Of a stretch of DNA of 64,000 bases, positions 36,347 to 63,760 are shown piece by piece. How positions within the stretch are numbered: the stretch's first letter is position 1; each line of letters opens with the position of its first letter. Both the position numbers and the translations under genes were made by a program. Source of the stretch: a virus; the IMG/VR virus record IMGVR_UViG_3300033148_008025, positions 57,455-121,454 of that record; one strand, written 5' to 3'. A model generated the notes under the pieces. That model made no database searches. It saw nothing but the letters and a program-made list of their open reading frames with translations, and had not been told where the DNA came from.

Positions 36347-36675
36347 TGGACGAAATAAGAAAACTGGCTGAGAGTTCACTGCAGGAGGCTGTGAGCATAG
36401 CTAGGCTCGCGGGGGGCGCCGGGATGAGGATTAAGCTTGGAGCTGCCCTACCCAAGCTCCCGAGTGCTGCGCAGCAGCTTAGGGCTACTGCGAGCTCCTC
36501 TTGGAGGATGGGAGCCTCGCCGCCAAAGCCGAAGTCTATGCGTCCAAACGGACGCATAGGAGATCCGGCTAGGACCAGGTCGCCAGCCAAGCCTCCAAGC
36601 AAGAAGGCATTTTACCGAGACATGGTTCTCGGAATGGACCCGAGTTATGGCAACCGTATGGCTGTCAAAGGCTAA
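36346..36675 (+). CDS. Small basic protein translationally coupled to the RNAP gene
   Basis: 109 aa; TAATG overlap; begins MDEIRKLA. Confidence 0.6.
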   Translation: MDEIRKLAESSLQEAVSIARLAGGAGMRIKLGAALPKLPSAAQQLRATASSSWRMGASPPKPKSMRPNGRIGDPARTRSPAKPPSKKAFYRDMVLGMDPSYGNRMAVKG

Positions 36676-41829: not shown

Positions 41830-42714
41830 GTGCGATACCCATACGAGCGATTCATTAGGTTTCTCGTATCCCGCAAGCTTGATCCAAGTGACACGCTGAA
41901 CGGGTACGGGCTTCCACACGTGGGTCCGATGTGGACAAGCGATTGCCGCCACGAACTTCGAAAAACAGCTCCATCTGCGATCGTCAACTACATTGATTCC
42001 AAGAACGATCATCTTACGTTTAAGAATGGTGTCCTGGAGTGGGCGGAAGACGAGGGCTTTAGGGAGCTCTGGGATGCCCAACCCGAATTCAGCGGAAAGA
42101 CTGATGCAAAGTTAGACACTGCGCATCTCATTTTCATGAACCCTCACTCAAGGGCTCTGACTGGGATGATGATTCTCTCCAAGGCCTCAGACGATGAAAT
42201 ATGTCTGATGGTCAAAGAGAAGCTCGGCCTCGAGCTAGACGAAGAGGGCTTAGGTATATACTGCGATATCTTCTGGGATGTAGACATCCTCGGCAGAGAG
42301 GGGTGGGAAGCTTTTCTTTCTGAGATAAAAACGAAGGAGGAGAGGCACTACCTCGCACTAGGACTCGGGGCACTGTCACTCGACGAATGTCGCAATACAG
42401 CAGGACTCGGGACGCATCTTGACCTCGACATGATGCTTCACGCTGTTTTGTCAGAGTCCTTCTTCAAGCTGAGAGCTGCTTACAACCACCCAAACCCTGA
42501 AGCTGCGAACATTGAGATGTGGCATAGCCATTGGCAGAGAGCGTGGGATAGAGCAGAGAAAAGACGGAGAGAAGAAGACGGGGAAAATCCAATTGCAAGT
42601 GGCGACTTCGAAGCCCTCTTTTCGATTCGAACAACAAAATCCGAACATGTGTCACTCACTGACCTCAAAGGACACATGTCGACAGGCGCAGAAATCGCAA
42701 AAGAGAAGGGTTGA
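41830..42714 (+). CDS. Hypothetical protein, terminase small subunit candidate
   Basis: 294 aa, helical, immediately upstream of and overlapping terL; identity positional only. Confidence 0.45.
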   Translation: MRYPYERFIRFLVSRKLDPSDTLNGYGLPHVGPMWTSDCRHELRKTAPSAIVNYIDSKNDHLTFKNGVLEWAEDEGFRELWDAQPEFSGKTDAKLDTAHLIFMNPHSRALTGMMILSKASDDEICLMVKEKLGLELDEEGLGIYCDIFWDVDILGREGWEAFLSEIKTKEERHYLALGLGALSLDECRNTAGLGTHLDLDMMLHAVLSESFFKLRAAYNHPNPEAANIEMWHSHWQRAWDRAEKRRREEDGENPIASGDFEALFSIRTTKSEHVSLTDLKGHMSTGAEIAKEKG

Positions 42715-44492
42715 TGGAACAAGTAGAAGAGAAAGAAGAAGCTCTTGATAGCTACGACTCGGATCCGTTTGACTTTACGGAGTTTCAGGAGCGACCAGCG
42801 ATGCGGAAACACATCGACTGGAAGCATGCGGGTGACTGGGCACCAACACTAAAATCATTCACAAAGAAAGGGCGTACAAAACCTTCCTTCGGTGGTCGTG
42901 TAAGTGATATCGCACAGGCGGTTCTTTACCATCTCGGGCGACCACTCCGCCTTGACAATCATGCATTCATGCTCCCAGTCTTCAACGACCAAGATCCGAG
43001 GCTGGTTCTTAAGTGTTCGCGACAGGTTGCGAAATCAACAACCATTTGCAATCTACAACTGATTGAATCGATCATCACTCCACACTGGAGAAGCCTCTAT
43101 GTCTCACCGTCTGCACTGCAGACGAGGCAATACTCCAACGAGAAACTTCGTCCTACAATCTACGACTCACCGTTTGTGAAGGGTGGTTTTGCTGGGAAAG
43201 GGGTCACTGACCAGGTTTTTGAGAAAACCTTACTCAACGGTTCATACATGTTCCTGCGATACGCATTCCTCACTGCAGCCCGAGCTCGAGGTATCCCTGC
43301 TAGCCGCGTGTTTTTTGATGAAGCCCAAGACCTCCTGAAAGACAATATCAAGGTTATCTCACAGTCGCTCTCGGCATCACGCCTTGCTGCAGGTGTTGAG
43401 GGGCGGGAGATGATTGCAGGAACACCCCTGACTTTCGCCAACACGCTAGAAGAGTATTGGCAGTGGTCGACCCAGAACGAGTGGCTAGTCCCTTGCGACT
43501 GCAAGGCACCTCGATATTGGAATATGATCGGCCCGACAAACATCGGAAAAAAAGGGCTGATCTGCTCAAGCAAAAACTGCGGAAAGCCACTCAATGCCGC
43601 AGCGGGGCAATGGGTTTCATTTCAGCCCGGCGAGCACTATGTTGGATACCACATCTCCCAACTCATGGTTCCGTGGAAACAGGAACCAGACGCATGGAGT
43701 GCTGAGATCGTACTTCCATTCGACAAGTGGCCAGAATCAAAGTTCAACAATGAAATTCTGGGGCTATCCTACGACAACGCATCATCCCCTGTTACGAGGA
43801 TGGACCTACAGGCAAATTGCTATCCGCAGCAAGAAATACCAAACAAGAACACAAGAAAGTTCGTCTGGCAGAAAGGCCCTGCACAGGCAGGGCTAAGGGT
43901 GTTTGCAGGTATTGACTGGGGAGAAGGTCGAGAAGAAGGCGCGGTTGAAGGTGGGGTCAAGAGGTTCGCGTCATGGACCGTGCTAACTCTGGGCGGATAT
44001 GTTGGCGACAAGTTTTGGCCATTCGCCATGAAGCGATACGTGGGCAAGGATGTTGATCCAGAGATAATCATCCCAGACGTTCTGCACCTATGCGGATACT
44101 GGAACGTCGAAGTTGTGGGGGCTGACTGGGGGCACGGCTGGGGAATGAATAGCCGGATCATGAAGGCAATCGGAAAGCCTCGGGTGATGCAATTCGCTTA
44201 TTCGTCCAATCTTGGTGAGAAAAAAAGATGGGACGCAAATGCCTACAAGTTCATCATCAACCGCAACTCAGCCCTTGTGAATGTCTTTTCGAGCATCAAG
44301 CAAGGGAAATACGTTTTCCCCGAATGGGAGGAATTTGAACCATTCGGAAAAGATATCCTGGCAGAGTATGTGGAGTACAATGAGCGAACTCGAACAATGA
44401 AGTACGACCATCCGATAGATCAGCCAGACGATGCCCTGCACAGTCTTGTGTATTGCAAACTTGCGGCTGACATCACTCTTGGAAAGTTCTAA
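42714..44492 (+). CDS. terL: Terminase large subunit
   Basis: Walker A-like LKCSRQVAKST, Walker B VFFDEAQD, AGTP motif, nuclease AGIDWG, ADWGHG, PDDALHS. Confidence 0.92.
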   Translation: MEQVEEKEEALDSYDSDPFDFTEFQERPAMRKHIDWKHAGDWAPTLKSFTKKGRTKPSFGGRVSDIAQAVLYHLGRPLRLDNHAFMLPVFNDQDPRLVLKCSRQVAKSTTICNLQLIESIITPHWRSLYVSPSALQTRQYSNEKLRPTIYDSPFVKGGFAGKGVTDQVFEKTLLNGSYMFLRYAFLTAARARGIPASRVFFDEAQDLLKDNIKVISQSLSASRLAAGVEGREMIAGTPLTFANTLEEYWQWSTQNEWLVPCDCKAPRYWNMIGPTNIGKKGLICSSKNCGKPLNAAAGQWVSFQPGEHYVGYHISQLMVPWKQEPDAWSAEIVLPFDKWPESKFNNEILGLSYDNASSPVTRMDLQANCYPQQEIPNKNTRKFVWQKGPAQAGLRVFAGIDWGEGREEGAVEGGVKRFASWTVLTLGGYVGDKFWPFAMKRYVGKDVDPEIIIPDVLHLCGYWNVEVVGADWGHGWGMNSRIMKAIGKPRVMQFAYSSNLGEKKRWDANAYKFIINRNSALVNVFSSIKQGKYVFPEWEEFEPFGKDILAEYVEYNERTRTMKYDHPIDQPDDALHSLVYCKLAADITLGKF

Positions 44493-49929: not shown

Positions 49930-50442
49930 TTGGCTCTTCGGGCTATAGCCGATCCAGTCACCAGGATCATTCAGCTATTGGATGCTCCTGTCGGTGGGCT
50001 GTCTGATATCAGTGTCCCTTACGACCTGTATAGTAGGCTCAAGGATGATTGGCACTCTACCCCAAATCTAAGAAAGCTTCACTTCTGCTTCAGCACGGAA
50101 GGTGGTACGACGGTAACTCCAGTCAAGAAGTCTGGAGCCTATTTCTTTCTGCGCAACGATCTGGGGTGGAGGCTTCGACCATACGATGCCAACCAAGAGT
50201 TAACGATCGACGGAATGCTTTACCCCTCGGACATTTCAATTCCGATGATCTTAACTCCTGCAGGCAGAACTATCATCATCTTCAACGAGCGCTCCAACCT
50301 TGCTCAGAGCGTGCAGGCTGAAACGGATTCGGCTGCAGTTGCAAACGCTGTCAGAGCTGAGCTTGCTCCAGAGCTCGCAGACATTGCAGTCACAGTCGAC
50401 CACGCCAGGGCTGCAAACGCTCAGACGAAAATAATTCCCTAG
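49930..50442 (+). CDS. Protein sharing the N-terminal domain of 47604-49448
   Basis: 170 aa, TTG start; DLYSRLKDDW...YFFLRNDLGWRLRP. Confidence 0.55.
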   Translation: MALRAIADPVTRIIQLLDAPVGGLSDISVPYDLYSRLKDDWHSTPNLRKLHFCFSTEGGTTVTPVKKSGAYFFLRNDLGWRLRPYDANQELTIDGMLYPSDISIPMILTPAGRTIIIFNERSNLAQSVQAETDSAAVANAVRAELAPELADIAVTVDHARAANAQTKIIP

Positions 50443-50849
50443 CGCTTATTGCTTTTCTCTTCGATTTTGTCGAACAGTGCTCTGGTGAGAGAGCCAGTTA
50501 GCGCACCCTGTGTTCCAAGGCCTGCAAGCTCAGACTTGGTTGTCAGCGGATCTTTCTTGGACAGGAGGCTGATAGATTTCGTCCCCTTCGGTCGGGCTAC
50601 ATTTTTGATGACCCTTGTCATCCCACGTCCGCTCAGCACTGCAGCGGGGATTGCCATGGCACCGAGAAGACTTGAAGCAAGGTAGTTCCTCTTCCTCTTT
50701 CGCCGTGCTTCTGGAATTTTGCGAATGATGCTGTCGGCACTATTCTCAGCCTTCATCTTGATTTTTGCAGACTCGAGAACGTCGTTAGACCCACTCGATG
50801 CACTCAGTTTTGTAAGCTCATCCGCGAAGCCTGACATCATTGGAGTCAT
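50439..50849 (-). CDS. Small basic protein with N-terminal GFADELTKLS tag and hydrophobic helices
   Basis: 136 aa; MTPMMSGFADELTKLSAS; YLASSLLGAMAIPAAVL helix. Confidence 0.7.
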   Translation of the reverse strand: MTPMMSGFADELTKLSASSGSNDVLESAKIKMKAENSADSIIRKIPEARRKRKRNYLASSLLGAMAIPAAVLSGRGMTRVIKNVARPKGTKSISLLSKKDPLTTKSELAGLGTQGALTGSLTRALFDKIEEKSNKR

Positions 50850-51411: not shown

Positions 51412-51420
51412 CCTTATGCC
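51412..51420 (-). promoter_or_regulatory. GGCATAAGG motif (copy 3 of 3 exact), preceded by GGCGTAA
   Basis: Overlaps the stop of the upstream minus-strand gene; about 72 nt upstream of ATG 51339. Confidence 0.45.
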
Positions 51421-52097
51421 TTATTACGCCACGAGACCTTTATCTCAAGTGGGTGTGCAATAATCCCTTGCCCATTCACCCCCTCTGCAAATAAATCCAT
51501 CAGCCCAATGAAGGCTTCCTCGGCCTTGGCTGCATCGGACCAGCTTGCGCCAAATGCAATCATATTTTCGTCCATGAAGAATGGGTCACCATTCCGACTT
51601 GCTTCCAGAAGAACAGGTGCCTTTAGGTGCCATCGCTTGAATTGCTTGCTGCCACCCCAGTAGTCGATAACTTTGAAAGCTGGTCCAATCGGAGTTTCCC
51701 CACTGGTAGCAATCTTGCCATCTTCTACGGCATACCCCATTGCTCGCATCCTCTCTATGTCAATGCCCTTGCTGGCGCCCATGACAACGGAAGCCAGTGC
51801 TCCGCCGGATGGAACTATAGACCTGTCAAACACTAGGTGAACAACTGTCTCAAGAGGCCTGTCTGGAACAGTACGCAAGAGCCCGTCCACTTCCCGTGCG
51901 GCCTTCATACCAAGGATTGCCGGCTGGGGCGGGGAAGCTTCTATCTGCGCCGCAGAGGCTGTCAGCTGCTTCCAAATGGATGTCTGGTCATACTTCGCCG
52001 TGGACAGCTCTACCGGAGGCTCAGTTCTTTGCACTGGTTCTCCACTTGCGACCAAATGCGCGCTAATATCACTTCCACAGTTCGGACAGAATTTCAT
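51414..52097 (-). CDS. Hypothetical protein with N-terminal zinc ribbon
   Basis: 227 aa from ATG 52097 (AAGGAG RBS); MKFCPNCGS. Confidence 0.7.
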   Translation of the reverse strand: MKFCPNCGSDISAHLVASGEPVQRTEPPVELSTAKYDQTSIWKQLTASAAQIEASPPQPAILGMKAAREVDGLLRTVPDRPLETVVHLVFDRSIVPSGGALASVVMGASKGIDIERMRAMGYAVEDGKIATSGETPIGPAFKVIDYWGGSKQFKRWHLKAPVLLEASRNGDPFFMDENMIAFGASWSDAAKAEEAFIGLMDLFAEGVNGQGIIAHPLEIKVSWRNKA

Positions 52098-52130
52098 ACA
52101 AGTTTCTCCTTCAGGTGTATTTCCGCTCGC

Positions 52131-52159
52131 TTGACCTGATTTTTGATAGCTTATACCTT
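52131..52159 (+). promoter_or_regulatory. Sigma70-like promoter TTGACC-N17-TACCTT for the head cluster, overlapping a minus-strand GGTATAAG motif (52150-52157)
   Basis: Divergent intergenic region; same -35/-10 hexamers as at 22050. Confidence 0.55.
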
Positions 52160-52190
52160 CAAGTAGAACACTTGGAAGCAGGGAACCAAC

Positions 52191-53144
52191 ATGAGTACAA
52201 ACCATTTTGCCTTCGTCACATCTGATTCAGCACCCGGACAAACGAAGGTGGCCGCTGATCGGCTGGAGCTCCTTGGACAAATTGCAGCAAAGCACTATCT
52301 CGAAGATCGGGTACCACTCAACACCTCCATCAAAAAGATGGCACAGGAAAACGATTTGAATCACAACCAGATTCAAAGGATCTGCGAGATGGCAAACATC
52401 TCAACACATAAGGGGCTTTGGGCCAAAACCGCACAAAAAGAGAGTGTCGCCTTCGACCTGGCCGATGCCAGAAACATTGCAACAGTTTCTCCAAGCCCAA
52501 GCAAGGACGAAGATGAGAGCGAGTGTGGGTGTTCCTCGGCATCATCTCCATCGTCCGTAGACTCAGATTACATGGCACCACCGAAAGGGATCCCACTTCC
52601 TGGCCCATCGATAATGTCAATGATGGGCGCAGATCCATCTAAGGTTCACAACGGACTGAGTTCCGAGCCTGAGTCGAAGAAAATCATCATCATTCTTCAA
52701 AAGAAAGCGAGTGAAAGAAAAACTCTTGCAGACTCAATCCTCTACAAAGGGATGGAACTAGAAACACTTGAGAAAAAAGCCTATCAAACTGTAAAGCAAA
52801 CAGTTCTCGGCGGATCATCTTTTTCACAAGTATTCAAGGCAGCAGTAGGAGCGGGACTTGGCAAGATTGCCAATGAGAAATTACCGGAATATCAGGACAG
52901 ACTTATAGAAGAAACACACGGCGAGACTCGTAATCGCCTTGTGAAGTGTGCGATCCACAAGGCGCCGGAAGATTTGATTAGCTCCAACCTGGGCAACATG
53001 GTGGTCATCAACGGAGCCCACCCAGTGATAGTTTCTCTGGATACGGTTCAGAGGAAAACCGGCGAAATCAAAAATGGAATCAGCAACCTTCTTCGCATCG
53101 ACGATGAAGTGAAGATTTACCAACAGCGTCTAAGGGAGCTGTAG
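52191..53144 (+). CDS. Putative internal head / head-assembly protein
   Basis: 317 aa; KVAA, KTAQ, KKAS, KIAN motifs; first gene of the head cluster. Confidence 0.65.
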   Translation: MSTNHFAFVTSDSAPGQTKVAADRLELLGQIAAKHYLEDRVPLNTSIKKMAQENDLNHNQIQRICEMANISTHKGLWAKTAQKESVAFDLADARNIATVSPSPSKDEDESECGCSSASSPSSVDSDYMAPPKGIPLPGPSIMSMMGADPSKVHNGLSSEPESKKIIIILQKKASERKTLADSILYKGMELETLEKKAYQTVKQTVLGGSSFSQVFKAAVGAGLGKIANEKLPEYQDRLIEETHGETRNRLVKCAIHKAPEDLISSNLGNMVVINGAHPVIVSLDTVQRKTGEIKNGISNLLRIDDEVKIYQQRLREL

Positions 53145-53497
53145 TGAATAACGTACTAAACGGATTCGCCTCTGAACTAACCAAGGTTGCCCTAGCCAAA
53201 GGGCTTGGAAGGGTTGGTAAGTTCATGATGAAACACCCTGTAGCTGGAATCATGGTTCCAATAATTGGAGCCACATCTATTGCAGCGGGAACGCAGGCGT
53301 ATAAAAGTGGGAAATCTGGGGGGCGAGGGCGCTATCTGAAAGCGTCACCTCGAGGGGCTAGCAAGTCTGCATACACCAACTACCACGGGCTTATGAAGCA
53401 CAGGGCTTCCAAAAAAGACATCAAAAAAATTACAGGGAAATATCGGGAAAGCGCATTTTCACGACGTGGCCCCTCTTCCAAATCTAAGAAAGCATAG
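53144..53497 (+). CDS. Tagged small basic protein with hydrophobic helix
   Basis: 117 aa; MNNVLNGFASELTKVA; PVAGIMVPIIGATSIAAG. Confidence 0.7.
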   Translation: MNNVLNGFASELTKVALAKGLGRVGKFMMKHPVAGIMVPIIGATSIAAGTQAYKSGKSGGRGRYLKASPRGASKSAYTNYHGLMKHRASKKDIKKITGKYRESAFSRRGPSSKSKKA

Positions 53498-53499
53498 TC

Positions 53500-54207
53500 A
53501 TGAATTCACTCCACCTTCTTGTCGAATGTCACCGCCGCGGATACCTATCAAAGGAAGCTGCAGACAGCGTTGCCGAAGTTCGCGAGCGACTGATCATGGG
53601 CGCCCTAAAGAAAGAGGCAAAGGAATTTGTCGAGGCGCTTTCCTCGCGCGAGTTTGACAAAGAAGCATCTTCTATTGGATCTTCTATTGGATCTAAAATC
53701 GTATCTAAATACAGGTCGGCCAAGAGCGGGATTGAAGGATTGGCAACCAGCGACGGACTCTGGGAAAGGTCTGTCCGAAACCTTGCACTTCTAACGGGAA
53801 TGGGAGCAGCTGTTGGGGCAGGTGGCGCTGGTGTAGATGCATTTCTGTCACATCGGAAGGATACCCAGACTAGGAAGAGGATTGAGAGGTCCTATCCTCA
53901 AATGTTCAAGCTTGAGCCAGATTTGAACGAACATGACAAGTCCACAATCAGTCGGAACTTTCAGGTTCTAGCAACATACGCTCCTTCCATTGCAGCAAAT
54001 CCTGTCGTTGCTGCAACATGGTCTCTCGAAAAAGCCATTCGTGGACGAATTGAGCCACTTGAAATCAAGAGCCTTGCTGAAACACAGACAGCGATCGACA
54101 GGGCATCAGAGCGTGAACACTTCATTGCTACGCCGGCAGCTAGGAACATCATGGGCATAGCGACATCGTCGCTCGGCAAGATTGAACCTCTCAAGGATGC
54201 AATCTAG
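53500..54207 (+). CDS. Putative ejection/membrane-helix head protein
   Basis: 235 aa; FDKEAS motif; LALLTGMGAAVGAGGAG helix. Confidence 0.65.
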   Translation: MNSLHLLVECHRRGYLSKEAADSVAEVRERLIMGALKKEAKEFVEALSSREFDKEASSIGSSIGSKIVSKYRSAKSGIEGLATSDGLWERSVRNLALLTGMGAAVGAGGAGVDAFLSHRKDTQTRKRIERSYPQMFKLEPDLNEHDKSTISRNFQVLATYAPSIAANPVVAATWSLEKAIRGRIEPLEIKSLAETQTAIDRASEREHFIATPAARNIMGIATSSLGKIEPLKDAI

Positions 54208-54216
54208 GAACGCACG

Positions 54217-55662
54217 GTGGCAAGAGACCCTCTTAGCTTCTTCGTAAATGAGAAGGTGGCGAGCCTGAGTGCGCCTGAGACGCCTGTTGATGAGTTTCAT
54301 CGTATCCCGGCTCGTCCCTCCGACCAGAGTATTGATCCCGGAGAACGTGCCCTAGCTGGCCTTGCCGCTGTAACAGGATCGCTCATTTCCAAGATTGTCC
54401 CATGGGCCACCGAGATTGCTGTCAGCAATCAATTCTCGAAAGGAGAGAAAGCTTTTCCGCGTCCTGGGGGGATTGGTCCCGTATCAACTATTGGTGAATT
54501 CCTAACCCAAGATTCTGCCCCACCCAAGTCGAGAATAATGGGCTTGTTCGATGTTACCGGACGATCACCCAGCAAGGAGGAATGGCATTCGACAGGAATG
54601 ACCAGCCAGCGAATCAATTTTGGACACAGGTTGAAGGAAATTGAGGACATCGCAGACTCCTTTATCGACAAACACAGGTTGAAAGAAAAAGGGGTGAAAC
54701 TACATTTTCGGCAAGGACCGATAAGTGGAACGGTTACAGGATCGTATTCTCCTTCCACCAAAAAAGTACACATTCCATACACCGGAAAAGAGGCAGTACT
54801 TCATGAGCTCGGGCATGCAGCCGACTACACAACGAGGATTGGAAAAATTCGCTCACACGTAGGGCCCGCCATCAAAAAGAGTGTTCTCGTTGCCTTGCCG
54901 ATCGCACTAGCCGCAGGTGACCAAGTTAAAGAAATAATCCCTGGAACAATAGATGATAGGGCCATCGAGTTCATGCAGGACAATGCTCCAGCAATCATGG
55001 GGGCGACGCTTGCTGCAACTGTTATTTATCCAGAAGCAAAAGCAACCATGCTTGCAGTAAGGCATGTTGCCGAGAAAGAAGGCCCAATCGCTGCTAGGGC
55101 TATGATGAAAAAACTCGGCCCAGCGTTGGGAAGCTATGTCATCGGGGCCATACCGGCAATCATAGGAATGTCACTTGCACGCAAATATATGCGTGAAGCC
55201 CGGGAAGAGAAGGCTGAGCTCATCGACGAAATTGAAAAAATTGGTTCAGTCGTAGATGTATTCGTCCATCACGGCAAGGACATCTCACACGTTGCTAAGG
55301 GCATCGCAAGAGGCACTGCTGAGCTCATGTCAAAACCTGGAACAATGAAAAACATCGCCAGGGCGGCCAAGGAAGTAGGTACTTCCCCGGAGTTTGTACA
55401 TGGTGCGATAGTGAGTGCTGTTCCCGCGGCCCTTGGTGCCCTCTATATGTACGGAACTCCTAGCGGTGATATTGCACGAAAGAGAATGCACAAAAGACAG
55501 ATCCAGAAGCTTCCGCACAGCATGGTTGGTAATCAGACGATGGCAACTGAGAGCTGGAGAGAAGAGCACCCGCTGCGATTTGCTGGAATTGTAGCTCTGG
55601 GCACAGCCATGGCTGGGGGAATCATGACGAAATTCATAAGAGACTTGGCTCCGATCCTATGA
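54217..55662 (+). CDS. Zincin-like metallopeptidase domain protein with multiple hydrophobic helices
   Basis: 481 aa; GSYSPSTKKVHI...VLHELGHAAD (HExxH); EKVAS and DEIEKIGS motifs. Confidence 0.7.
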   Translation: MARDPLSFFVNEKVASLSAPETPVDEFHRIPARPSDQSIDPGERALAGLAAVTGSLISKIVPWATEIAVSNQFSKGEKAFPRPGGIGPVSTIGEFLTQDSAPPKSRIMGLFDVTGRSPSKEEWHSTGMTSQRINFGHRLKEIEDIADSFIDKHRLKEKGVKLHFRQGPISGTVTGSYSPSTKKVHIPYTGKEAVLHELGHAADYTTRIGKIRSHVGPAIKKSVLVALPIALAAGDQVKEIIPGTIDDRAIEFMQDNAPAIMGATLAATVIYPEAKATMLAVRHVAEKEGPIAARAMMKKLGPALGSYVIGAIPAIIGMSLARKYMREAREEKAELIDEIEKIGSVVDVFVHHGKDISHVAKGIARGTAELMSKPGTMKNIARAAKEVGTSPEFVHGAIVSAVPAALGALYMYGTPSGDIARKRMHKRQIQKLPHSMVGNQTMATESWREEHPLRFAGIVALGTAMAGGIMTKFIRDLAPIL

Positions 55663-56477
55663 CCAAAGTTCGCGGCATAGCCCTAGTTGGGGGATGGACG
55701 CCAGAGGAGAAGAAGGTAATTCCCGAAATCCTGGGTCCCATGCCAGACGCCTGGCTCAAGGACAACCCGTTCATTTCTCGCATCATACGAAAACCCACTC
55801 TTCTCAATGCGCCCAAAACGGCGCCAGGCCATTCAAAGTATGAACCGCAGAACAGGTCAATTGTCGTATTCGACAAGGGCGTGTATCATGACGGAAAGAT
55901 AGACCTGGAGCAGTTTCGGCGCTCTGTCTGCCACGAGCTGGCACATGCAATCCTTGAACTACACCCAAAACTCCTGTCAAAGTGGACTATCGCCACAAAG
56001 AACGACGACTACGTTGATGACTACGCAAAGACCAGCCCAGAAGAAGATTTCGCCGACACCTTTTCTGAATTCTTCATTGATCCAAAAAAAACACGTAGTG
56101 TTGTCCCAAGGAAGGCAAACTTCGTGCAAAAGCTTCTATCCCTGTCTAGGGGTGGAGAGGAAAAAATAGCCATGTTCAATATCGCATCATTCGCCGACGA
56201 GCTCACAAAGACCGCCATCTCCGGATCTGCCCTGAAGGACATGCTGTCGAAAGCTGTTCGTTCTCCCGCAACAAAGGGCGTAGGCCTCGCAGGAGCAGGA
56301 GCAGGAGGCGGTGCCATCGTCGGTCATGAGATGGGCGAAGGAACGGGACTCAAGCAGGGGCGCAAGAATGTTCGGACGGTTGCCGTGCAAGCACGCAAGA
56401 TTGGACGCAGGGAAGGTGTCATGATGTATCATCAAGCTCTGCAGAAGTCACTGCGCTCTCGAGGGCAACAACGATAG
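55659..56477 (+). CDS. Zincin metallopeptidase fused to a tagged Gly-rich helix module
   Basis: 272 aa; CHELAHAI...DDYAKTSPEEDFADTF; then EKIA-MFNIASFADELTKTA. Confidence 0.75.
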   Translation: MTKVRGIALVGGWTPEEKKVIPEILGPMPDAWLKDNPFISRIIRKPTLLNAPKTAPGHSKYEPQNRSIVVFDKGVYHDGKIDLEQFRRSVCHELAHAILELHPKLLSKWTIATKNDDYVDDYAKTSPEEDFADTFSEFFIDPKKTRSVVPRKANFVQKLLSLSRGGEEKIAMFNIASFADELTKTAISGSALKDMLSKAVRSPATKGVGLAGAGAGGGAIVGHEMGEGTGLKQGRKNVRTVAVQARKIGRREGVMMYHQALQKSLRSRGQQR

Positions 56478-56490
56478 ACGGGAAACTCCC

Positions 56491-57342
56491 ATGGTGAAAA
56501 AAAACGCATCAGGCCTCTTCTTCGAAAAGAGAGCTCAGTCAAGTTCTGGGAAATTCTTTAGCCAGATGCCAGGGCGTGAAACTGGTGAATTTTTCGGCAA
56601 ACAGGCAACGACCGCGTTGCCACAGCCATCACCCACAACACCGTCAAAGCCACCGGTTGACAAGATCAACATCGGAGCAACAGGTGGTCCTACTGGCGGC
56701 CAAGGATACCGCGGAGAGGGCATGAGTGGAGGGATGTATGGGTGTGGAACTGGAGAAAAGACAGCCTCTAGAACCCCGAATGAATGGTCTCACGAAACAG
56801 ATCTTCCTAACGGCTTCCATCGTCCCGCAAAAGATCAACCAGAAGACCTCGAGGCTGGCGGCGAAAGATTCTTCGATTCAGAAGTGGAAGGTCCAAGCTA
56901 TCGATCATCAGATGGAATGCGCCATGGGGTCAAAGAAGGAGGAAGCATGCACATGCGTCCTGGCTCTGGACATCAGATAGGCAAGCATGCATCGCAAGCC
57001 CCTCGGTTCCTGGGGACGTCATTCGCCAAAGAAGCTGGTTATGGGTCAGAATTCAAGTCAAGCCTGGGCAAAGCCAAGGATGAATTCGTGTCCAGCCTGG
57101 GCAAAGCAAAAGAAGAAGCCGGCGAAGAAGCATCTGGCGCACTGCACTCTATAACCAAGAGTCCTCTTGCGGCAGCTGCAATTACCGGACTAGCCGGTGC
57201 GGCTTTGCTCCGCGGAGGCAGGAGGGGTTACAAAACCCTCAAGGGTGCAATCAAAAAAACTCCTGCAAAAAAAGCCCCGGAGTCGCTAAAAGACAAAGCA
57301 AGAAGTAAAGTCCAGGAACTCGTTGGCAAAATCACTCAATAA
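56491..57342 (+). CDS. Disordered putative internal head protein
   Basis: 283 aa; KRAQ, KQAT, KTAS, KHAS, KEAG motifs; AAAAITGLAGAALL helix. Confidence 0.65.
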   Translation: MVKKNASGLFFEKRAQSSSGKFFSQMPGRETGEFFGKQATTALPQPSPTTPSKPPVDKINIGATGGPTGGQGYRGEGMSGGMYGCGTGEKTASRTPNEWSHETDLPNGFHRPAKDQPEDLEAGGERFFDSEVEGPSYRSSDGMRHGVKEGGSMHMRPGSGHQIGKHASQAPRFLGTSFAKEAGYGSEFKSSLGKAKDEFVSSLGKAKEEAGEEASGALHSITKSPLAAAAITGLAGAALLRGGRRGYKTLKGAIKKTPAKKAPESLKDKARSKVQELVGKITQ

Positions 57343-57356
57343 CCAGGAACACAAAA

Positions 57357-57725
57357 ATGGAAAATCTTACTGACGTATACCAACAAATCGCAGCTGCAGA
57401 TGCTGGGAAACTCGAGAAGCAAGCTGCGGTGATCAAAGTAGCCGAAGAGGAAGATGCTGCCGGCCGCATCATGGCTCGTGGCTTTGCCGACGAACTGACC
57501 AAAATTGCCGGCGACGACGCAGGATACGGACAAGATCCGTCGATGGCGAAAACAAAGCTTCCTACCCCCCCGAAGGTAGGCGGAACGGTCAAAGCTCCAG
57601 ACTTCAAAGTCGGAGGAGGAGCCACCGGTCCAGGCCCAGGTTTGGCTGGTCGACCAATTAAAGCTCCGCCTGTGAAAGCTGAGCCAGAAAAGGTCAAGCT
57701 GAAGCGTCCAGGCGGTCGCCAGTAA
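57357..57725 (+). CDS. Scaffold-like paralogue 1
   Basis: 122 aa; LTDVYQQIA...LEKQAA...AGRIMARGFADELTKIAG. Confidence 0.7.
   Translation: MENLTDVYQQIAAADAGKLEKQAAVIKVAEEEDAAGRIMARGFADELTKIAGDDAGYGQDPSMAKTKLPTPPKVGGTVKAPDFKVGGGATGPGPGLAGRPIKAPPVKAEPEKVKLKRPGGRQ
57457..57485 (+). repeat. 29-nt exact direct repeat, copy 1 (copy 2 at 60602-60630)
   Basis: CTGCCGGCCGCATCATGGCTCGTGGCTTT. Confidence 0.9.
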
Positions 57726-57734
57726 ACACCTGTC

Positions 57735-58418
57735 ATGAACAACCTCCTCCAAGGCTTCGCTGACGAGTTGACCAAGGTCGGCTTCAAACTCAAAGCGAAC
57801 AAATCTACGGGCCCAGCAGGAAATGCTGGCGCCCCAAGTCCCATGGGATATGGCCGCGTTGCTGCGCCAAAACCATTGGGCTCAGGAGGAGGTCCAACCA
57901 GTGCTGGGCTAACTGGCATAGGGCGGCAGCAAATGAATTTTTCTGCAAAACAGAAAAAGCCCAAATATGTCTCCGCTGGAACCCAGAAATTTGCTCCAGC
58001 AAAACCACCCGAAGTTCAGAAAAATAAGAAGGGTGGGGGGCGGAGAAAGCGGGGGGCAAAAAAAGACCTCGGACCAGCGTGGGAAACCGGAGCACAGCGA
58101 CTGAATAGGAGAGTAGGCGAACAGCGAAGTGCCACGAAGGCAAAGGGGAGGACCGATTCTGAGTGGTTTCAAAAGCAAACACCCAAAGCCGGCGGCAAGC
58201 CAACAGTAAAGTCAACGTCGGACCAAGCCCGATATAGTAAGTTGAAGGCAAAGGGCAATACCGGCAGGTGGGCGGCTGCCCATGGAAAGCCAATACGGTC
58301 CACTGGAACAACCCTCAGTCCATCCGCAAAAGCTCGACAGGCTCGACTAAGCCAATCTGCCAACAAGGCAAGGGCTATCGTCACGAAGCCGAACCTAAAA
58401 GGACTCATGAGACAGTAG
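57735..58418 (+). CDS. Tagged, highly basic disordered protein (possible DNA-binding internal protein)
   Basis: 227 aa; MNNLLQGFADELTKVG then Lys/Arg/Gly/Pro-rich. Confidence 0.7.
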   Translation: MNNLLQGFADELTKVGFKLKANKSTGPAGNAGAPSPMGYGRVAAPKPLGSGGGPTSAGLTGIGRQQMNFSAKQKKPKYVSAGTQKFAPAKPPEVQKNKKGGGRRKRGAKKDLGPAWETGAQRLNRRVGEQRSATKAKGRTDSEWFQKQTPKAGGKPTVKSTSDQARYSKLKAKGNTGRWAAAHGKPIRSTGTTLSPSAKARQARLSQSANKARAIVTKPNLKGLMRQ

Positions 58419-60236
58419 ATGTACAAGCTTCTAACATTCTCCGGATACGACAATCGAACCGGACCTCACATCTTTCCGATTGAGGCAGATGTCGATAAAA
58501 GCATTGGGCATATCAAAATGGCCCGAGAGCTTCCTGCGTCAATCGAGCAGTACATTCGAAATTCAAAACCCGTAAAAGGGAAGACACAGCTACTCATCGA
58601 TGCGATGGGGGCAGGCGAATTTTACGGATCAAACGTGAATGGAGACTTCTTCCCAGAAGAGGCTTTGCGTCACGAAGGTCCAGACTACGGATACAGAACA
58701 TTCATGATGTATGCGTATCCGTTTAAGCATCACGTCAACAAGGATCCTGCTCGAGCCTACGGTGACAAAGTCGTTCTTTCGTCATACGACCCGAAGATGC
58801 ATCGAGTTCTTCTTATCGTTCGTGTCGACGACGCAAAGTGCCAAGACATTCTTGGAGATCTGGACGACGGAACCTACTGGGACGTCAGCATGGGATGCCG
58901 AGTCCCATGGGACGAGTGCTCAATCTGTCACAACCGAGCAAAAAACCGAGCGGAGTACTGCACACACCTTCGCTATCAGATGAACAAGATCCTACAAGAC
59001 GGGAAAAGAGTTTTTGCATACAACCGTCTTCCAAAATTCTTCGATATCAGTTTTGTCACAATCGGCGCAGAGAAGGCATCTCACATTCTGAAAAAGGTCG
59101 CACACACAGGCCGAGCGGAAGAACTTGTCTTAAGCTCCGACGCTGGAGAGCACTATTATTCAAAGCTGGCAGACGTAGAGAAGGCTGCTGAGCAAAGCAA
59201 GCGAGCGGAAATCGAAAAAGAAGTCCCTTCCCAGCCAGCGGCGAACATCCAACCAGCAACACCGGCTGACAAGGCAAAGGTGGAAGGTTTTCTCGGCGCT
59301 GCTGGCGCACTGAAGTCCTGCGAACGTCCGATCCCGAATCAGACTCTAGATCGGATGGCACAACACCCGATGAGGGATATCTTCACAACGCTTGCAACGC
59401 TTGGAGTCGACCTGCGACCCAATGAATTCCAACGAATCGTTCTCATGAAGCAGGGTGCCGCTAAGCTGGCCAGCGCACTTGAACAACACAGGCTTGTTTT
59501 TGATGAAACGAAACCAGCGACATCTATCCCCAAATGGGCAATGGATTTCAAAAAAATAAATCATGGCGCTATCAATGAAAAGGTAGCGATGATCATCCAG
59601 CCATGGCTCAAAGAGCGGTCCTGCTATCCAGACATTCTCCAAAAAAGAATCGGTCGAATGGAGAAGCAAGCAGAGCTTGATTTCAAGTACGACAGCGATA
59701 GCCAGTGGCATCCGATGACCGATGACCAAAAGCGTGAAGCATCTGGAATGCACGGGTTAGTGCCCGCAAGCGCAGCTTTAGCTGCAGGCTTCATGGTTTT
59801 CAGAAAGATTTTTCCTGGGCTACAGACTACTGGCCCAGCGCCAATCCGCGCCATAGCAAAACACCCATGGCTCCTTCCCATGCTGATTGGGGCCGGCGTT
59901 GGGGCATCTGTTGGGATGCAAACAATGAACGCTCCCATGCCTCTAACAAAAGAGGGAGGTGTTGCTAGACTTGACGCTAAAAAAGTAGGGGCCTACCATG
60001 GTGCCAATGGCGCAAGTGAAAACACATCAAGTCCACTCCATCATGGGATGATCACACTTGCCTATGTCTACTCTAATACCACCCAGAACAAGCAACGCGG
60101 ACAATACGATCAGCTGATCACTCAACGACCTGAGCTTGCAAAACTAAGCAAAGTTGCAAACCATCAAACTCGCCACTCATCGCAAGATGTAAAAATTGCT
60201 GATTCAATTCGGCGAACAGAAAGCAAAAGGAAATAA
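58419..60236 (+). CDS. Prohead (head maturation) serine protease, HK97/assemblin-like fold, with C-terminal extension
   Basis: 605 aa; GSNVNGDFF, FKHHVNKD (His candidate), DVSMGC (Ser candidate), CSIC...YCTH; located in the scaffold/capsid cluster. Confidence 0.7.
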   Translation: MYKLLTFSGYDNRTGPHIFPIEADVDKSIGHIKMARELPASIEQYIRNSKPVKGKTQLLIDAMGAGEFYGSNVNGDFFPEEALRHEGPDYGYRTFMMYAYPFKHHVNKDPARAYGDKVVLSSYDPKMHRVLLIVRVDDAKCQDILGDLDDGTYWDVSMGCRVPWDECSICHNRAKNRAEYCTHLRYQMNKILQDGKRVFAYNRLPKFFDISFVTIGAEKASHILKKVAHTGRAEELVLSSDAGEHYYSKLADVEKAAEQSKRAEIEKEVPSQPAANIQPATPADKAKVEGFLGAAGALKSCERPIPNQTLDRMAQHPMRDIFTTLATLGVDLRPNEFQRIVLMKQGAAKLASALEQHRLVFDETKPATSIPKWAMDFKKINHGAINEKVAMIIQPWLKERSCYPDILQKRIGRMEKQAELDFKYDSDSQWHPMTDDQKREASGMHGLVPASAALAAGFMVFRKIFPGLQTTGPAPIRAIAKHPWLLPMLIGAGVGASVGMQTMNAPMPLTKEGGVARLDAKKVGAYHGANGASENTSSPLHHGMITLAYVYSNTTQNKQRGQYDQLITQRPELAKLSKVANHQTRHSSQDVKIADSIRRTESKRK

Positions 60237-60237
60237 C

Positions 60238-60957
60238 ATGCCCTCTCTCGACGACCTCATGAGCAAATTTGCATCAGACGAATCAGCTACAGAAAATTTC
60301 GCAGTCCCCGGCGACGCCGTTGTCCCGGATTTTAACCCCGTCGACGACGGACAACTCAAGACAGCCTCTGAAGGAAACCAGGAAATGCGCTCACTCACCG
60401 ACATCTATATGGCAATCGCTGACAACGACCTCGAGAAGCAAGCTGCTGCTGCTGCTCATATCCCCGAAGAAAACTACGACGATGTAGACTTCGCAAAGAT
60501 CGCAGGTGATCTTGCTTCCGCCGAAGCAGCCGATCTTGCAATCCAGGATGAGCATAGCGGCGATGGTGCGGACATGGTCAAAGTTGCAGCAGAGTACGAC
60601 TCTGCCGGCCGCATCATGGCTCGTGGCTTTTATGATGAGTTCATGAAGCTTGCTGGTGCAATGGATACTGACGTATCCTCAAATCAGATGACGGAATCAC
60701 CATCCGCTTCATCTACCCCAGCCTTCGGTGACCGAGGACTGCCAACTGTTCCTACGAACTTTGCTGGCAACGAAGCCCACGATGGTCAAATCGAAACAGC
60801 AGGCCAAGCTGGTAAGCAGGTTTACAGCGACGTGCTCAAGCCAAGCAAAAGCATCTCTGCTGGCCAGGGAACCGGGGACGACCCCGAAGCTGCAGCAGTT
60901 AGCCTTGGTGGCGGTTCTCCCGCAGGATTCGCAACTGTGAAAGACCTTACGGCCTAG
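60238..60957 (+). CDS. Scaffold-like paralogue 2
   Basis: 239 aa acidic; AAAAGGA RBS; SLTDIYMAIA...LEKQAAA...AGRIMARGFYDEFMKLAG. Confidence 0.75.
   Translation: MPSLDDLMSKFASDESATENFAVPGDAVVPDFNPVDDGQLKTASEGNQEMRSLTDIYMAIADNDLEKQAAAAAHIPEENYDDVDFAKIAGDLASAEAADLAIQDEHSGDGADMVKVAAEYDSAGRIMARGFYDEFMKLAGAMDTDVSSNQMTESPSASSTPAFGDRGLPTVPTNFAGNEAHDGQIETAGQAGKQVYSDVLKPSKSISAGQGTGDDPEAAAVSLGGGSPAGFATVKDLTA
60602..60630 (+). repeat. 29-nt exact direct repeat, copy 2
   Basis: Identical to 57457-57485. Confidence 0.9.
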
Positions 60958-61004
60958 GCTGTAAGGTCTCTCATTCATCGCAAACCCCCAAAAGGAGAAC
61001 TGAC

Positions 61005-61424
61005 ATGGATTCACTGAAATCTGTATACAACGCCATCACAGAGCAAGACTTCGAGAAAGCTGCTCAGGCTGAGGTTGTTGAGCATTACGGCCAATCATTC
61101 GCAGAGGCCGACCCCGAAATGCTCAAGCAAGCTGCTGACTACGACTACATCGGACGCATTGTTGCCCACAATGTTTTCTCCGATCTCATCAAAGAAGCAA
61201 TGGATGAGGCTATGCCTGATGCTTCCGAAGACGAGAAGAAGAAGGAAGCCGATAAAGTCATCGCAAAAGCAAAGGGCGAAGCCCCTGCTGAAGATGAAAA
61301 AAAGGACAAGAAGGACGAAAAAGAGGAGGAGTCTGAGAAGACTGCTGCTTATCGTCAAGCCGTCCTTGAGCGAATGTACTCAGATCCTGGGTATGTTCAG
61401 GCGCTCATCGCCAAGCATTACTAG
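61005..61424 (+). CDS. Scaffold-like paralogue 3
   Basis: 139 aa; AAAGGAG RBS; SLKSVYNAIT...FEKAA...KQAADYDYIGRIVAHNVFSDLIKEA. Confidence 0.75.
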   Translation: MDSLKSVYNAITEQDFEKAAQAEVVEHYGQSFAEADPEMLKQAADYDYIGRIVAHNVFSDLIKEAMDEAMPDASEDEKKKEADKVIAKAKGEAPAEDEKKDKKDEKEEESEKTAAYRQAVLERMYSDPGYVQALIAKHY

Positions 61425-61447: not shown

Positions 61448-61888
61448 ATGATGGGTTATTCTCTTGATGAGCTTCTTGATGCCACCGGCATTAACGAGCT
61501 CGACGGATCACAACTGCGAAAAACCGCTGCTTCCAGTGAGCAGTGTGATTTTTCAAAACTTGCCGAACGCTGCCGGGAGGCAGCTGATGCAACTCCTTCT
61601 GAAGTTGAGCAATCAGACCACAGGGAGCTTGTTGAAAAAACTGCAGCCATTGCCGTCATCGAGAAAACCCTCTCAGAGATTGGCTCTATTGTGGGTGCTC
61701 CACTCCAGAAGACTGCTGCCGCCAGAAAAACAGGTTTTGGCCGGGCAGCGTTCATCAAATCGGCGCTTGAAGCTGGGCACGACCCGGAGAACATTGCAAA
61801 GTTCCTAGAGAAGAAAAAAAAGGACGAGGAAGAGGAGGAAGAAGAAAAGGCTTCTAAGAAGAAGACTTCCTCCTCGATCGTTTCCTAG
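61448..61888 (+). CDS. Scaffold/internal head protein
   Basis: 146 aa; KTAA x3, KLAE; charged C-terminus. Confidence 0.7.
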   Translation: MMGYSLDELLDATGINELDGSQLRKTAASSEQCDFSKLAERCREAADATPSEVEQSDHRELVEKTAAIAVIEKTLSEIGSIVGAPLQKTAAARKTGFGRAAFIKSALEAGHDPENIAKFLEKKKKDEEEEEEEKASKKKTSSSIVS

Positions 61889-61966
61889 CTTTTCTGGGAA
61901 AGTTTTATTTTTTTTGACGCCAAGTTGACGTTATGCCGGCCAAGCGTACGATGGGACAAAGACAAC

Positions 61967-62284
61967 ATGTCTAACAAAACCACAAAAAGTGCAAGCCAAC
62001 ACGGTGAGCTTTTAAAGGAAGCCGCTGCTGCACTCGATGTTGCGCAAAAACGTGACGATGCCGTCAAGCTCGCATTCGAGATGGTCGAACGCGGAAAAAT
62101 CCCAACATTCCAAGACCACAGTCAGTTCATGGATAAAGTTGCAGAACTGATGTCCAAAGACCTGAGAGTGGTTGAAGAAGCCCTTGAAATGGATTCCTCC
62201 ATGGCCGATTTTGGCAAGGTTGCGTCCGAAGGTGGGACTCCCACCGATGCCCATTCGACCTTCTTTCACAATTTGGCCGACTAA
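61967..62284 (+). CDS. Small scaffold/internal head protein
   Basis: 105 aa from ATG 61967; KSAS, KEAA, KVAE, KVAS. Confidence 0.7.
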   Translation: MSNKTTKSASQHGELLKEAAAALDVAQKRDDAVKLAFEMVERGKIPTFQDHSQFMDKVAELMSKDLRVVEEALEMDSSMADFGKVASEGGTPTDAHSTFFHNLAD

Positions 62285-62866: not shown

Positions 62867-63760
62867 ATGGAACAAATCGACGCAGGTACCTTCAACAATC
62901 TCTTCATCACAAAGCTCGACACGGCCGATGGCCTCGAGAAAGCTGCCCAAGCCGGCGGTGCTTTCGTTCGCGAGCGTTTGCGAGAAGTCTCATTTGCTCG
63001 CAGCATCGTGCCCCCCGAGTATCTCACCAAGGCCGACTGCCAGCGCTCTGTCAATCATGACACGCTGGTCAAAATCGTGGACATCGAGCCGCAGTCCAGT
63101 GCTGCTGCTGTCAACTTCCGCGGAAAAGCCTACGAGCGATACATCGAGGGTGATCGCTACGAGATCCCATTCTTCAAGATTGAATCAGAGAAGTTCAAGA
63201 AGAATGAGGCTGAGCTCTTGGCCTACGACTTCCCCGTCACCAAGGTGATTGAGGAGAACTCGGTCAAGGACATCCAGAAGATCGAGGACGGAAAGTTCAT
63301 CGAGTTCACGGACGCAGTCATCGCTGCCAACGGCAAAGACATTGCCCCTGCTGCTGCAGGTCCAGCAACGTCTGAGAATCTTGTGAGGCTATTCAAGGCT
63401 CTTGATACTGACGAACTTGCCGTCGGTACCATCTTGATGCACAAGTCCGACTGGGACGACTTCATGACCCAGGACGGTGCCGTCATCGGTTCACCACTGG
63501 CTTCGGAAATCCTGGTCAACGGCTACAAGTACAACACCATTCTTGGTCACAAACTTGTCGTCACCATCAAGTCGTCCATTGTTCCCCCAGGAACGATGTA
63601 TGTCTTCACGGACCCCAAGTATCTCGGAAACTTCTACATCCTCAACGATACGAAGTTCTACATCGAGAAGCGCGGCGACATGGTCAGCTGGCAGACTTGG
63701 GAGTACATCGGAATGGGATACGGAAACCTCCGTGCCTGCGCCAAGATGACTCTTACCTAG
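62867..63760 (+). CDS. Major capsid protein (HK97 fold)
   Basis: 297 aa; AGGAG RBS; strong C-ending codon bias; RERLREVSFARSIVPP, KDIQKIEDGKFI, TILGHKLVVT...VPPGTMYV patterns; follows protease/scaffold/decoration genes. Confidence 0.85.
   Translation: MEQIDAGTFNNLFITKLDTADGLEKAAQAGGAFVRERLREVSFARSIVPPEYLTKADCQRSVNHDTLVKIVDIEPQSSAAAVNFRGKAYERYIEGDRYEIPFFKIESEKFKKNEAELLAYDFPVTKVIEENSVKDIQKIEDGKFIEFTDAVIAANGKDIAPAAAGPATSENLVRLFKALDTDELAVGTILMHKSDWDDFMTQDGAVIGSPLASEILVNGYKYNTILGHKLVVTIKSSIVPPGTMYVFTDPKYLGNFYILNDTKFYIEKRGDMVSWQTWEYIGMGYGNLRACAKMTLT

Follow-up and report, generated by a model that had tools for sequence, protein, structure and literature searches.

A helix shared with a scaffold protein and ending in a putative protease site tags unrelated proteins of an uncultured phage: a candidate capsid-targeting propeptide

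Why should proteins that resemble each other in nothing else begin with the same short peptide? The question is raised by a stretch of viral DNA, positions 57455-121454 of IMG/VR record IMGVR_UViG_3300033148_008025 (64,000 nucleotides, the second half of a 121,454-bp viral contig, hereafter the window), in which a preliminary description had noticed the peptide (G/S)F-x-D-E-L-x-K-x-A at the N-termini of several proteins and inside a few others. That description proposed that the peptide, which we call the tag, acts like the capsid-targeting sequence (CTS) of phage T4, ends at the site of the prohead protease, and copies a docking helix of the scaffold. Here, we analyze the tag across the whole contig and its relatives, describe the motif in which it ends and the putative protease encoded beside it, and weigh the ways in which it could act. 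As observed, the tag is real and far above chance, and a T4-like targeting propeptide is the best-supported interpretation of it.

The contig lacks terminal repeats. Relatives found through the protease gene reach 170-181 kb, and one of 181 kb is complete according to CheckV; by comparison, our contig probably represents some two thirds of a full genome. We compared it with 24 related loci around protease homologues, among them near relatives (L003-L005, 58-63% protease identity) and distant ones (31-32%). Coordinates refer to the window unless marked as genome positions.

In a first pass we scanned all six frames of the whole 121,454-bp genome with a regular expression, and from the instances in the genome and the 24 loci we built a 19-residue hidden Markov model (HMM), with reversed sequences as decoys. 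The profile reads h-h-x-G/S/A-F-x-D/S-E-L-x-K-h-A/G/S (h, hydrophobic); across the clade its Phe and Glu are invariant and its Lys nearly so. The genome yielded 11 matches at 17.4-31.2 bits with the next best frame at 4.3 bits, a bimodal distribution, and across the genome and the 24 loci 55 matches reached at least 8 bits, against none in the reversed decoys. All strong positions listed in the preliminary description were recovered in the six-frame scan, together with copies outside the window. Three weaker peptides that it had counted as tags proved not to be full copies: MDEIRKLA at 36346 (0.4 bits) and ELIDEIEKIG at about 55216 (2.0 bits) score as noise and hold the short [DE]-hydrophobic-x-K-x-A/G site alone, and NVFSDLIKEA at about 61176, with no forward-frame match, is what is left of the helix at the equivalent position in a paralogue of the scaffold.

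Eight of the 11 copies are N-terminal (genome positions 33792, 35030, 37126 and 47876; window positions 10739, 50849 on the minus strand, 53144 and 57735). These tags are 14-17 residues long, and the start codon precedes the Phe by 5-8 residues, mostly 7. The remaining three copies (56172, 57483 and 60628) are internal, two of them in scaffold-like proteins (57357-57725 and 60238-60957) and one in a protein with an HExxH motif. The tagged non-scaffold proteins of the window are the following:

53144-53497 (+): 117-residue tagged protein, 20.6 bits; tag at residues 1-16 (53144-53191)
57735-58418 (+): 227-residue tagged protein, 22.1 bits; tag at 57735-57782; immediately 5' of the protease gene
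50439-50849 (-): 136-residue tagged protein, 27.1 bits; tag at 50802-50849
10739-11041 (+): 100-residue open reading frame (ORF), putative gene, 20.8 bits; tag variant SFVDELIRVG, with Arg for Lys
55659-56477 (+): 272-residue HExxH protein, 18.5 bits; internal tag at 56172-56216

What follows the tag differs from protein to protein, as had been suspected. Once stripped of it, the 11 proteins show no significant mutual similarity (best pairwise BLASTP E 0.014, in low-complexity sequence). In the 10-codon core, 59% of identical residue pairs are written with different codons; it is therefore the peptide, not the DNA, that is conserved, and a conserved 5' mRNA element is ruled out on the same ground. 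An exact back-translated GFADELTK pattern gave 6 matches in IMG/VR, about the level of chance. The N-terminal tags are amphipathic helices by their hydrophobic moment (0.37-0.52, above 96-99% of shuffles) and carry a heptad-like hydrophobic stripe. Being acidic and amphipathic and having no hydrophobic core, they are excluded as Sec or lipoprotein signal peptides. The tag has two parts, a stretch h-h-x-G-F-x-D of seven or eight residues that, with the E-L after it, makes up two turns of amphipathic helix, and a six-residue ending [DE]-L-x-K-h-[AGS], which is one form of a more general short motif, [DE]-hydrophobic-x-K-x-A.

The proteins that carry the tag have a common character. Eight of the nine tagged non-scaffold proteins are basic (isoelectric point (pI) of the mature part 10.1-11.8, 15-21% Lys plus Arg, about one third Gly, Ala and Ser), and four contain one hydrophobic Gly/Ala-rich segment. 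Judged from sequence, this composition is that of internal or ejection proteins; the internal proteins of T4 are likewise basic. The 53144 protein, whose GTG start overlaps the stop codon of the preceding gene, has a mature part of pI 11.2 with one such segment, and the protein at 50439-50849 has a pI of 10.7 and one hydrophobic segment; L003-L005 have tagged ORFs at places matching both genes. The mature part of the 57735 protein (pI 11.8) is Gly/Pro-rich and predicted to be disordered, and the protein aligns with its counterparts in L003-L005; in the ESM Atlas its model had a predicted local distance difference test score (pLDDT) of 0.50, with no family and no informative neighbour. The 10739 ORF overlaps the next ORF and adjoins a baseplate-wedge-like gene. 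Outside the window, the 699-residue protein at genome position 35030 has KTSC and InPase domains in addition to its tag and a hydrophobic segment. It belongs to an island of three consecutive plus-strand tagged genes (411, 699 and 226 residues; genome 33792-37806, L026:793-4807) bordered on both sides by minus-strand genes.

The HExxH protein at 55659 consists of a metallopeptidase-like N-terminal domain (HELAH; weak Pfam matches to Peptidase_Mx and ATLF, E about 0.05), the internal tag and a basic Gly-rich tail of 90 residues. K-x-A sites flank the tag on both sides (E-E-K-I-A before, T-K-T-A after), and the in-frame arrangement is kept in L003-L005. The preliminary description had taken 56172 for an N-terminal copy; the copy is genuine and has its own ATG, preceded by a Shine-Dalgarno-like GGAGAGG, but it lies inside the longer reading frame. 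This internal ATG could yield a separate tagged product of 101 residues. An adjacent head-module gene, 54217-55662 (+), encodes a second HExxH protein (HELGH) with several hydrophobic segments and similarly weak Pfam matches (Peptidase_Mx, ATLF; E about 0.05). The two are possibly packaged enzymes.

The head-morphogenesis module extends from about 50 kb of the window to the end of the contig, and in it core proteins, protease (58419), scaffold (60238) and major capsid protein (MCP; 62867) follow each other in a T4-like order. Searches of about 30 proteins of this region against Pfam and PHROGs gave no match for any tagged protein or scaffold. Its core genes are:

57357-57725 (+): 122-residue scaffold-like paralogue, 31.2 bits; internal tag helix at 57462-57509
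58419-60236 (+): 605-residue predicted prohead protease; assemblin fold at residues about 40-230
60238-60957 (+) (start 60196/60238): 239-residue acidic scaffold between protease and MCP; tag helix at 60607-60654
61005-61424 (+): 139-residue scaffold paralogue; degenerate helix copy GRIVAHNVFSDLIKEA and three K-x-A sites
61448-62284 (+): two small acidic proteins of 146 and about 105-119 residues; 5 and 3 K-x-A sites
62867-63760 (+): 297-residue HK97-fold MCP (phrog_2522, E 1e-17; PDB 6wkk, phage G gp27, E 8e-12)

We examined where the tag helix lies within the scaffold by aligning 38 of its 151 homologues. K41/A43, K67/A69 and K115/A117 are invariant in this alignment and A139, after K137, is nearly so, and the acidic linkers around these K-x-A sites differ in both length and sequence. 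No other nearly invariant stretch of the protein is as long as EYD-x-AGRIMARGF-x-DEF-x-KLA, which contains the tag helix and lies exactly between two K-x-A sites. The 57357 paralogue (sites LEKQA, VIKVA and LTKIA) repeats this arrangement. Thus the claim that the same amphipathic helix occurs inside scaffold paralogues holds for 57357 and 60238, and in the scaffold it is the most conserved stretch. The paralogy of the 61005 protein was recognized by BLASTP to its L003 orthologue, which matches 60238; its own helix falls below the noise of the tag HMM. In every context, the tag helix is bounded either by putative cut sites or by the N-terminus and a putative cut site. The scaffold also has a conserved C-terminal domain. 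An AlphaFold2 (AF2) model from the 38 homologues (pLDDT 53) consists of isolated helices with no tertiary packing, one of which, residues 114-141, spans the tag helix; the model gave no clue to the helix's partner. The two proteins at 61448-62284, the first with no family match, are likely further core or scaffold proteins.

The site in which the tag ends is itself a feature of the head module. Head-module proteins (3.5 thousand residues) contain 35 instances of hydrophobic-x-K-x-A, against 7.7 +/- 2.5 in shuffled sequences (4.5-fold), and the rest of the proteome contains 66 against 42. Replacing the Lys of the pattern by Glu or Arg abolished the enrichment in head-module proteins. Of the 24 related loci, 22 show the same enrichment (z about 4-14), those of the cultured Salmonella phage Arash (z 9.2) and Vibrio phage D69 (z 7.7) included. 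Around K-x-A, Asp or Glu is preferred at -3, Leu, Phe or Met at -2, Glu, Ser or Thr at -1, and Ala or Ser at +3. Herpes proteases recognize V/L/I-x-A and cut before Ser. In the MCP, residues 23-28 (62933-62950) read G-L-E-K-A-A after an N-terminal helix, and the K-x-A is kept in most relatives; we regard this as a candidate cut site of a propeptide. The enrichment, the invariant sites of the scaffold and the sites in protease and MCP together are what the cleavage code of a maturation protease would be expected to look like. At the N-terminus of the phage G MCP, ISKAL stands in place of K-x-A.

A protease that could read such a code is encoded between the 57735 gene and the scaffold. The sequence matches of the 58419 product are weak: it matches a head maturation protease family (phrog_18299, E 1.5e-6), and tblastn relates it to gp77 of Rhodococcus phage E3 ('prohead protease'), phage G gp19, Arash gp222 and D69. 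An alignment of 28 homologues shows no variation at His105, Ser157, Ser211, Cys167, Cys170, Cys181 and several Asp residues, and very little at His104 and His183. The invariant Asp109, Asp165 and Asp209 are candidates for an acidic S1 pocket. We modelled residues 1-260 with AF2 (pLDDT 82) and compared structures with VIA-align: the best match was T4 gp21 (5jbl; Z 10.3, root-mean-square deviation 2.8 A over 128 residues), followed by the proteases of varicella-zoster virus (1vzv, Z 9.8) and cytomegalovirus (8j3s, Z 7.1), with unrelated folds at Z 5.9 or lower. Foldseek of the same model against the PDB returned nothing at E 0.001 or better, and herpes proteases and 5jbl weakly. We therefore regard the 58419 product as a prohead protease with the gp21/assemblin fold whose sequence family is undescribed; its model places it structurally among the gp21/assemblin proteases, while by sequence it stands outside the curated families. 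Two elements set it apart, a zinc-knuckle-like cluster (Cys167/Cys170/Cys181/His183) inserted inside the assemblin fold and a C-terminal extension of 370 residues with two hydrophobic segments. At the end of the protease domain, K226-x-A228 is nearly invariant (90% or more), with further K-x-A sites after it. The head proteases of phiKZ and SPN3US autocleave at this same place, the domain end (PMC5694885). Among 698 protease homologues in a large protein collection, Pfam recognized inteins in several (PF14528, PF14890 and PF05203) and one InPase, and no protease family. The phage G homologue gp19 (L025) contains the sites LVKTA, LEKVA and LLKIA, and the K-x-A code may extend to such very distant relatives.

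Relatives of the virus bear on the tag as well. L003-L005 encode one more small protein with a tag, about 7-8 kb further downstream than the protease gene and past the end of our contig. In distant relatives, 5-9 consecutive genes begin with a 20-residue version of the tag and differ in what follows; it reads MDKQALLEQVYEESF-x-DEL-x-KI[SA] in one of them and M-x-L-x-KI-x-x-[DN]AF-x-[DN]EL-x-KI[AS] in another. The complete 181-kb relative has 8 profile matches, every one of them in a region of about 21 kb that surrounds the protease gene and runs across the contig ends. The strict tag is absent from Arash and D69, which contain looser look-alikes such as LIQGFKETLTDGMDKVAS in D69. A distant relative (G005, L028:4858-5694 (+)) encodes a tagged protein of 278 residues with a YHGT motif and a sub-threshold Pfam match to the Tpt1/KptA RNA 2'-phosphotransferases (E 0.009). 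In T4, too, a CTS brings an enzyme into the head, namely the ADP-ribosyltransferase Alt.

From these observations, we consider it reasonably probable that the tag is a targeting propeptide of the T4 CTS type, one that copies the conserved helix of the scaffold, brings proteins into the head and is excised at K-x-A. We favour this reading because the tag ends in K-x-A, the motif of the likely head-protease cut sites. The proposal of the preliminary description, a T4-like targeting tag that ends at a protease site and copies a scaffold helix, is supported by our analysis because the protease fold, the K-x-A enrichment, the scaffold helix, the basic cargo and the clustering in the 181-kb relative were all found as it predicts; each of its predictions open to computation was borne out. 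What the sequences and models show is the motif with its statistics, positions and conservation, the fold of the protease, and the joint occurrence of tag and site; cleavage, targeting, binding partner and ejection are what we infer from these features by analogy with T4.

How such a propeptide would work can be put in more specific terms. During assembly of the prohead core, the helix of the cargo would dock to the partner of the scaffold's own helix, so that cargo would be built in by imitating the scaffold. After closure of the shell, a gp21-type protease would cut at K-x-A, either after Lys, which would keep a hydrophobic P3 as in T4 (L/I-x-E), or after Ala, which would resemble the Ala-Ser of herpesviruses. 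Cutting would free tag peptides of 14-22 residues along with scaffold fragments, so that scaffold and cargo lose the helix in one maturation step. The mature cargo (the basic, DNA-binding-like proteins, those with membrane-active segments, and the HExxH and KTSC/InPase proteins) would stay in the head with the DNA and would then probably be ejected into the host. A stronger version goes further: the tags would be molecular mimics of the scaffold helix, cargo would be co-polymerised into the core as a 'pseudo-scaffold', and a protease of the gp21 type, its specificity shifted from Glu to Lys-x-Ala, would excise the helix from both. We regard this stronger version as possible rather than probable; the idea that cargo copies scaffold is supported because the helix is bounded by putative cut sites in every context. 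Co-folding the MCP, the protease domain (residues 1-235) and residues 1-45 of the 57735 protein scored 0.27 against a mark of 0.32, in a single run without controls.

Several findings weigh against a targeting propeptide cut at K-x-A. Throughout the clade, the residues that precede K-x-A at the N-terminus of the MCP are conserved, and they may therefore be a retained N-arm and not a discarded propeptide. The protease has no match in Pfam, including families of the Peptidase_S77/S21 type. In conserved scaffold sites the residue two before the Lys is sometimes non-hydrophobic. Five tagged genes lie 40-80 kb away from the head module, one of them beside baseplate genes, so linkage to the head is a tendency, not a rule. 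Virion data from Arash are of limited help: its tryptic proteome lists 116 'structural' proteins including obvious non-structural enzymes (PMC10585845), a list that is too permissive and gives no peptide positions, and trypsin itself cuts after Lys. If the head protease cuts after Lys, its cuts would for that reason be invisible in tryptic virion proteomics, and this blindness may be why cultured relatives such as Arash have no reported code. The homologous head-module proteins gp218 and gp220-226 were detected in virions of Arash, a distant relative, and its RNA polymerase (RNAP) subunits were the most abundant proteins there (PMC10585845), which suggests a packaged virion RNAP in the clade. 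The phage G paper (PMC12484599) contains no cleavage data.

The main rival to a targeting propeptide, which we think improbable, makes the tag an extended recognition site of the protease and nothing else: the conserved residues ahead of K-x-A would be an exosite or recognition helix for efficient cutting, proteins would enter the head by other determinants, and the peptide would serve, for example, as an inhibitory or stabilising cap that maturation takes off. It draws on the facts that the tag ends in a generic site, that the K-x-A code is more general and more widely conserved than the tag, that Arash and D69 have the code and lack the strict tag, and that the internal copies are flanked by sites. 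However, the generic sites in scaffold, MCP and protease lack the G-F-x-D part, so recognition does not need it, and a cleavable 15-mer at a fixed N-terminal position on nine unrelated proteins would have no obvious point if it were idle before being cut. That the same helix is the best-conserved element of the scaffold also speaks against this rival.

Slightly less probable still is that the peptide is never removed and acts as a retained interaction or membrane module, for instance an oligomerisation helix for a trans-envelope channel or an inner-body-like structure, within the head or once ejected. Such a role would suit an amphipathic helix with a heptad-like hydrophobic stripe, the Gly/Ala-rich hydrophobic segments, typical of membrane-active ejection proteins, in several tagged proteins, and the conserved MCP helix before K-x-A; but excision better accounts for the strict coupling of the tag helix to a terminal K-x-[AGS], for the sites that flank the internal copies and for the invariant sites in variable linkers, and propeptides typically occupy just such a fixed place at the very N-terminus.

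We judge it quite unlikely that the tag addresses another assembly line (baseplate, tail or portal-proximal) or a chaperone instead of the capsid interior. In its favour are the 10739 copy, which lies between baseplate-like genes, and the distance of five tagged genes from the head module. Against it, most copies, and all of those in the complete relative, surround the protease, scaffold and MCP genes, the helix belongs to scaffold proteins, and in composition the cargo resembles internal head proteins. Finally, an origin of the motif in chance, in sequence composition or in a recent DNA duplication has next to no probability: it can point to the low complexity of the downstream sequences and nothing more, and is refuted by the decoy comparison, the gap between matches at 17 bits or more and the rest below 4.5, the differing codons and the conservation of the tag in relatives down to 31% protease identity.

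A targeting propeptide is of a kind already known, from T4 and in part from phiKZ and SPN3US. The T4 CTS ends in hydrophobic-x-Glu and has already served as a means of packing foreign proteins into the head. According to the summary in PMC5694885 of Mullaney and Black (1996), it is found on IPI, IPII, IPIII, Alt and gp24 and is removed by gp21; these propeptides of 10-20 residues direct IPI-III and Alt to the core (PMC5694885). Ours likewise is a short N-terminal peptide common to unrelated proteins that ends at a protease motif, and the two systems agree in protease fold, gene order and basic cargo. They differ in the consensus, ours having another sequence and being longer and far stricter, in that the site is K-x-A and not L/I-x-E, and in that the tag is also a near-invariant internal element of the scaffold, which is not described for T4. 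We therefore class the tag as one that would work like the T4 CTS, and not as a sequence homologue of it. With the gp21/assemblin proteases (5jbl, 1vzv) the putative protease shares its predicted fold and its genome position, and its invariant Ser and His are candidates for their catalytic residues, as the site after its domain is a probable counterpart of their autocleavage site; it differs in belonging to no Pfam or NCBI-type family, in the Cys3-His knuckle and the 370-residue extension, and in a specificity that would involve Lys and Ala in place of Glu (T4, phiKZ) or Ala-Ser (herpes).

In phiKZ and SPN3US, propeptides are cut at (S/A/G)-x-E by gp175 and gp245 (PMC5694885, PMC10052503). Many head and ejection proteins are processed there at a short motif, the C-terminus of the protease is autocleaved and a virion RNAP is packaged, as our RNAP-like gene for a 2076-residue protein recalls; in contrast to the tag, those propeptides are mostly 80-130 residues long, share no single tag, and have a motif that ends in Glu. 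Encapsulin cargo-loading peptides are also short portable peptides that send unrelated cargo inside an HK97-fold shell, but they usually stand at the C-terminus, attach to the shell protein itself and stay on, whereas our tag is N-terminal, common to the scaffold, and coupled to a putative protease site, a coupling that argues for its removal. Literature on T4 and phiKZ heads, in a search that was not exhaustive, yielded no description of a K-x-A head-protease code or of the tag.

To our knowledge, what recognizes the T4 CTS is still unclear. Since the tag is the most conserved helix of the scaffold, it offers a concrete recognition hypothesis for a large uncultured clade (698 protease homologues, on relatives' contigs as long as about 178 kb), and mimicry, if true, would be the first sequence-level explanation of CTS recognition. 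It would also provide a portable 15-residue handle for loading foreign proteins in a clade of about 180-kb, RNAP-packaging phages. The tag would furthermore serve as a sequence rule by which packaged, and probably injected, proteins could be listed from the genome alone, and the site suggests that gp21-type proteases have diversified in specificity, for Glu, for Ala and, here, for K-x-A.

Other features of the window complete the picture:

8679-10742: baseplate wedge-like protein (phrog_6 match), adjoining the 10739 ORF
25661-27703: weak portal candidate
30116-36346 (+): 2076-residue multisubunit-RNAP-like protein, by its matches to several phage 'RNA polymerase beta subunit' PHROGs along the sequence apparently a fused beta/beta'-like enzyme
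36346-36675 (+): 109-residue protein starting M-D-E-I-R-K-L-A
42711-44492: large terminase (phrog_675, E 4e-47)

The 36346 gene stands directly after the RNAP-like gene. Just upstream of the portal candidate, two plus-strand genes (22105-23256 and 24485-25639) encode proteins of about 383 residues each with the highest hydrophobic-x-K-x-A counts of the genome (10 and 7); by this content they probably belong to the core or are additional substrates of the protease. Within the head module, the gene at 52191-53144 (+) encodes a 317-residue protein with 6 K-x-A sites and no family match. Its start overlaps the divergently oriented ORF 51414-52205 (-), which itself probably begins at a more internal codon (MKFCPNCG). 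Proteins sharing a comparable internal motif, QIQRICE-x-AN, are encoded at the matching place in L022, L011 and L008, and those of Arash (gp220) and D69 have diverged further. The 52191 gene is thus conserved in the head module, and its product is a candidate for the partner of the tag.

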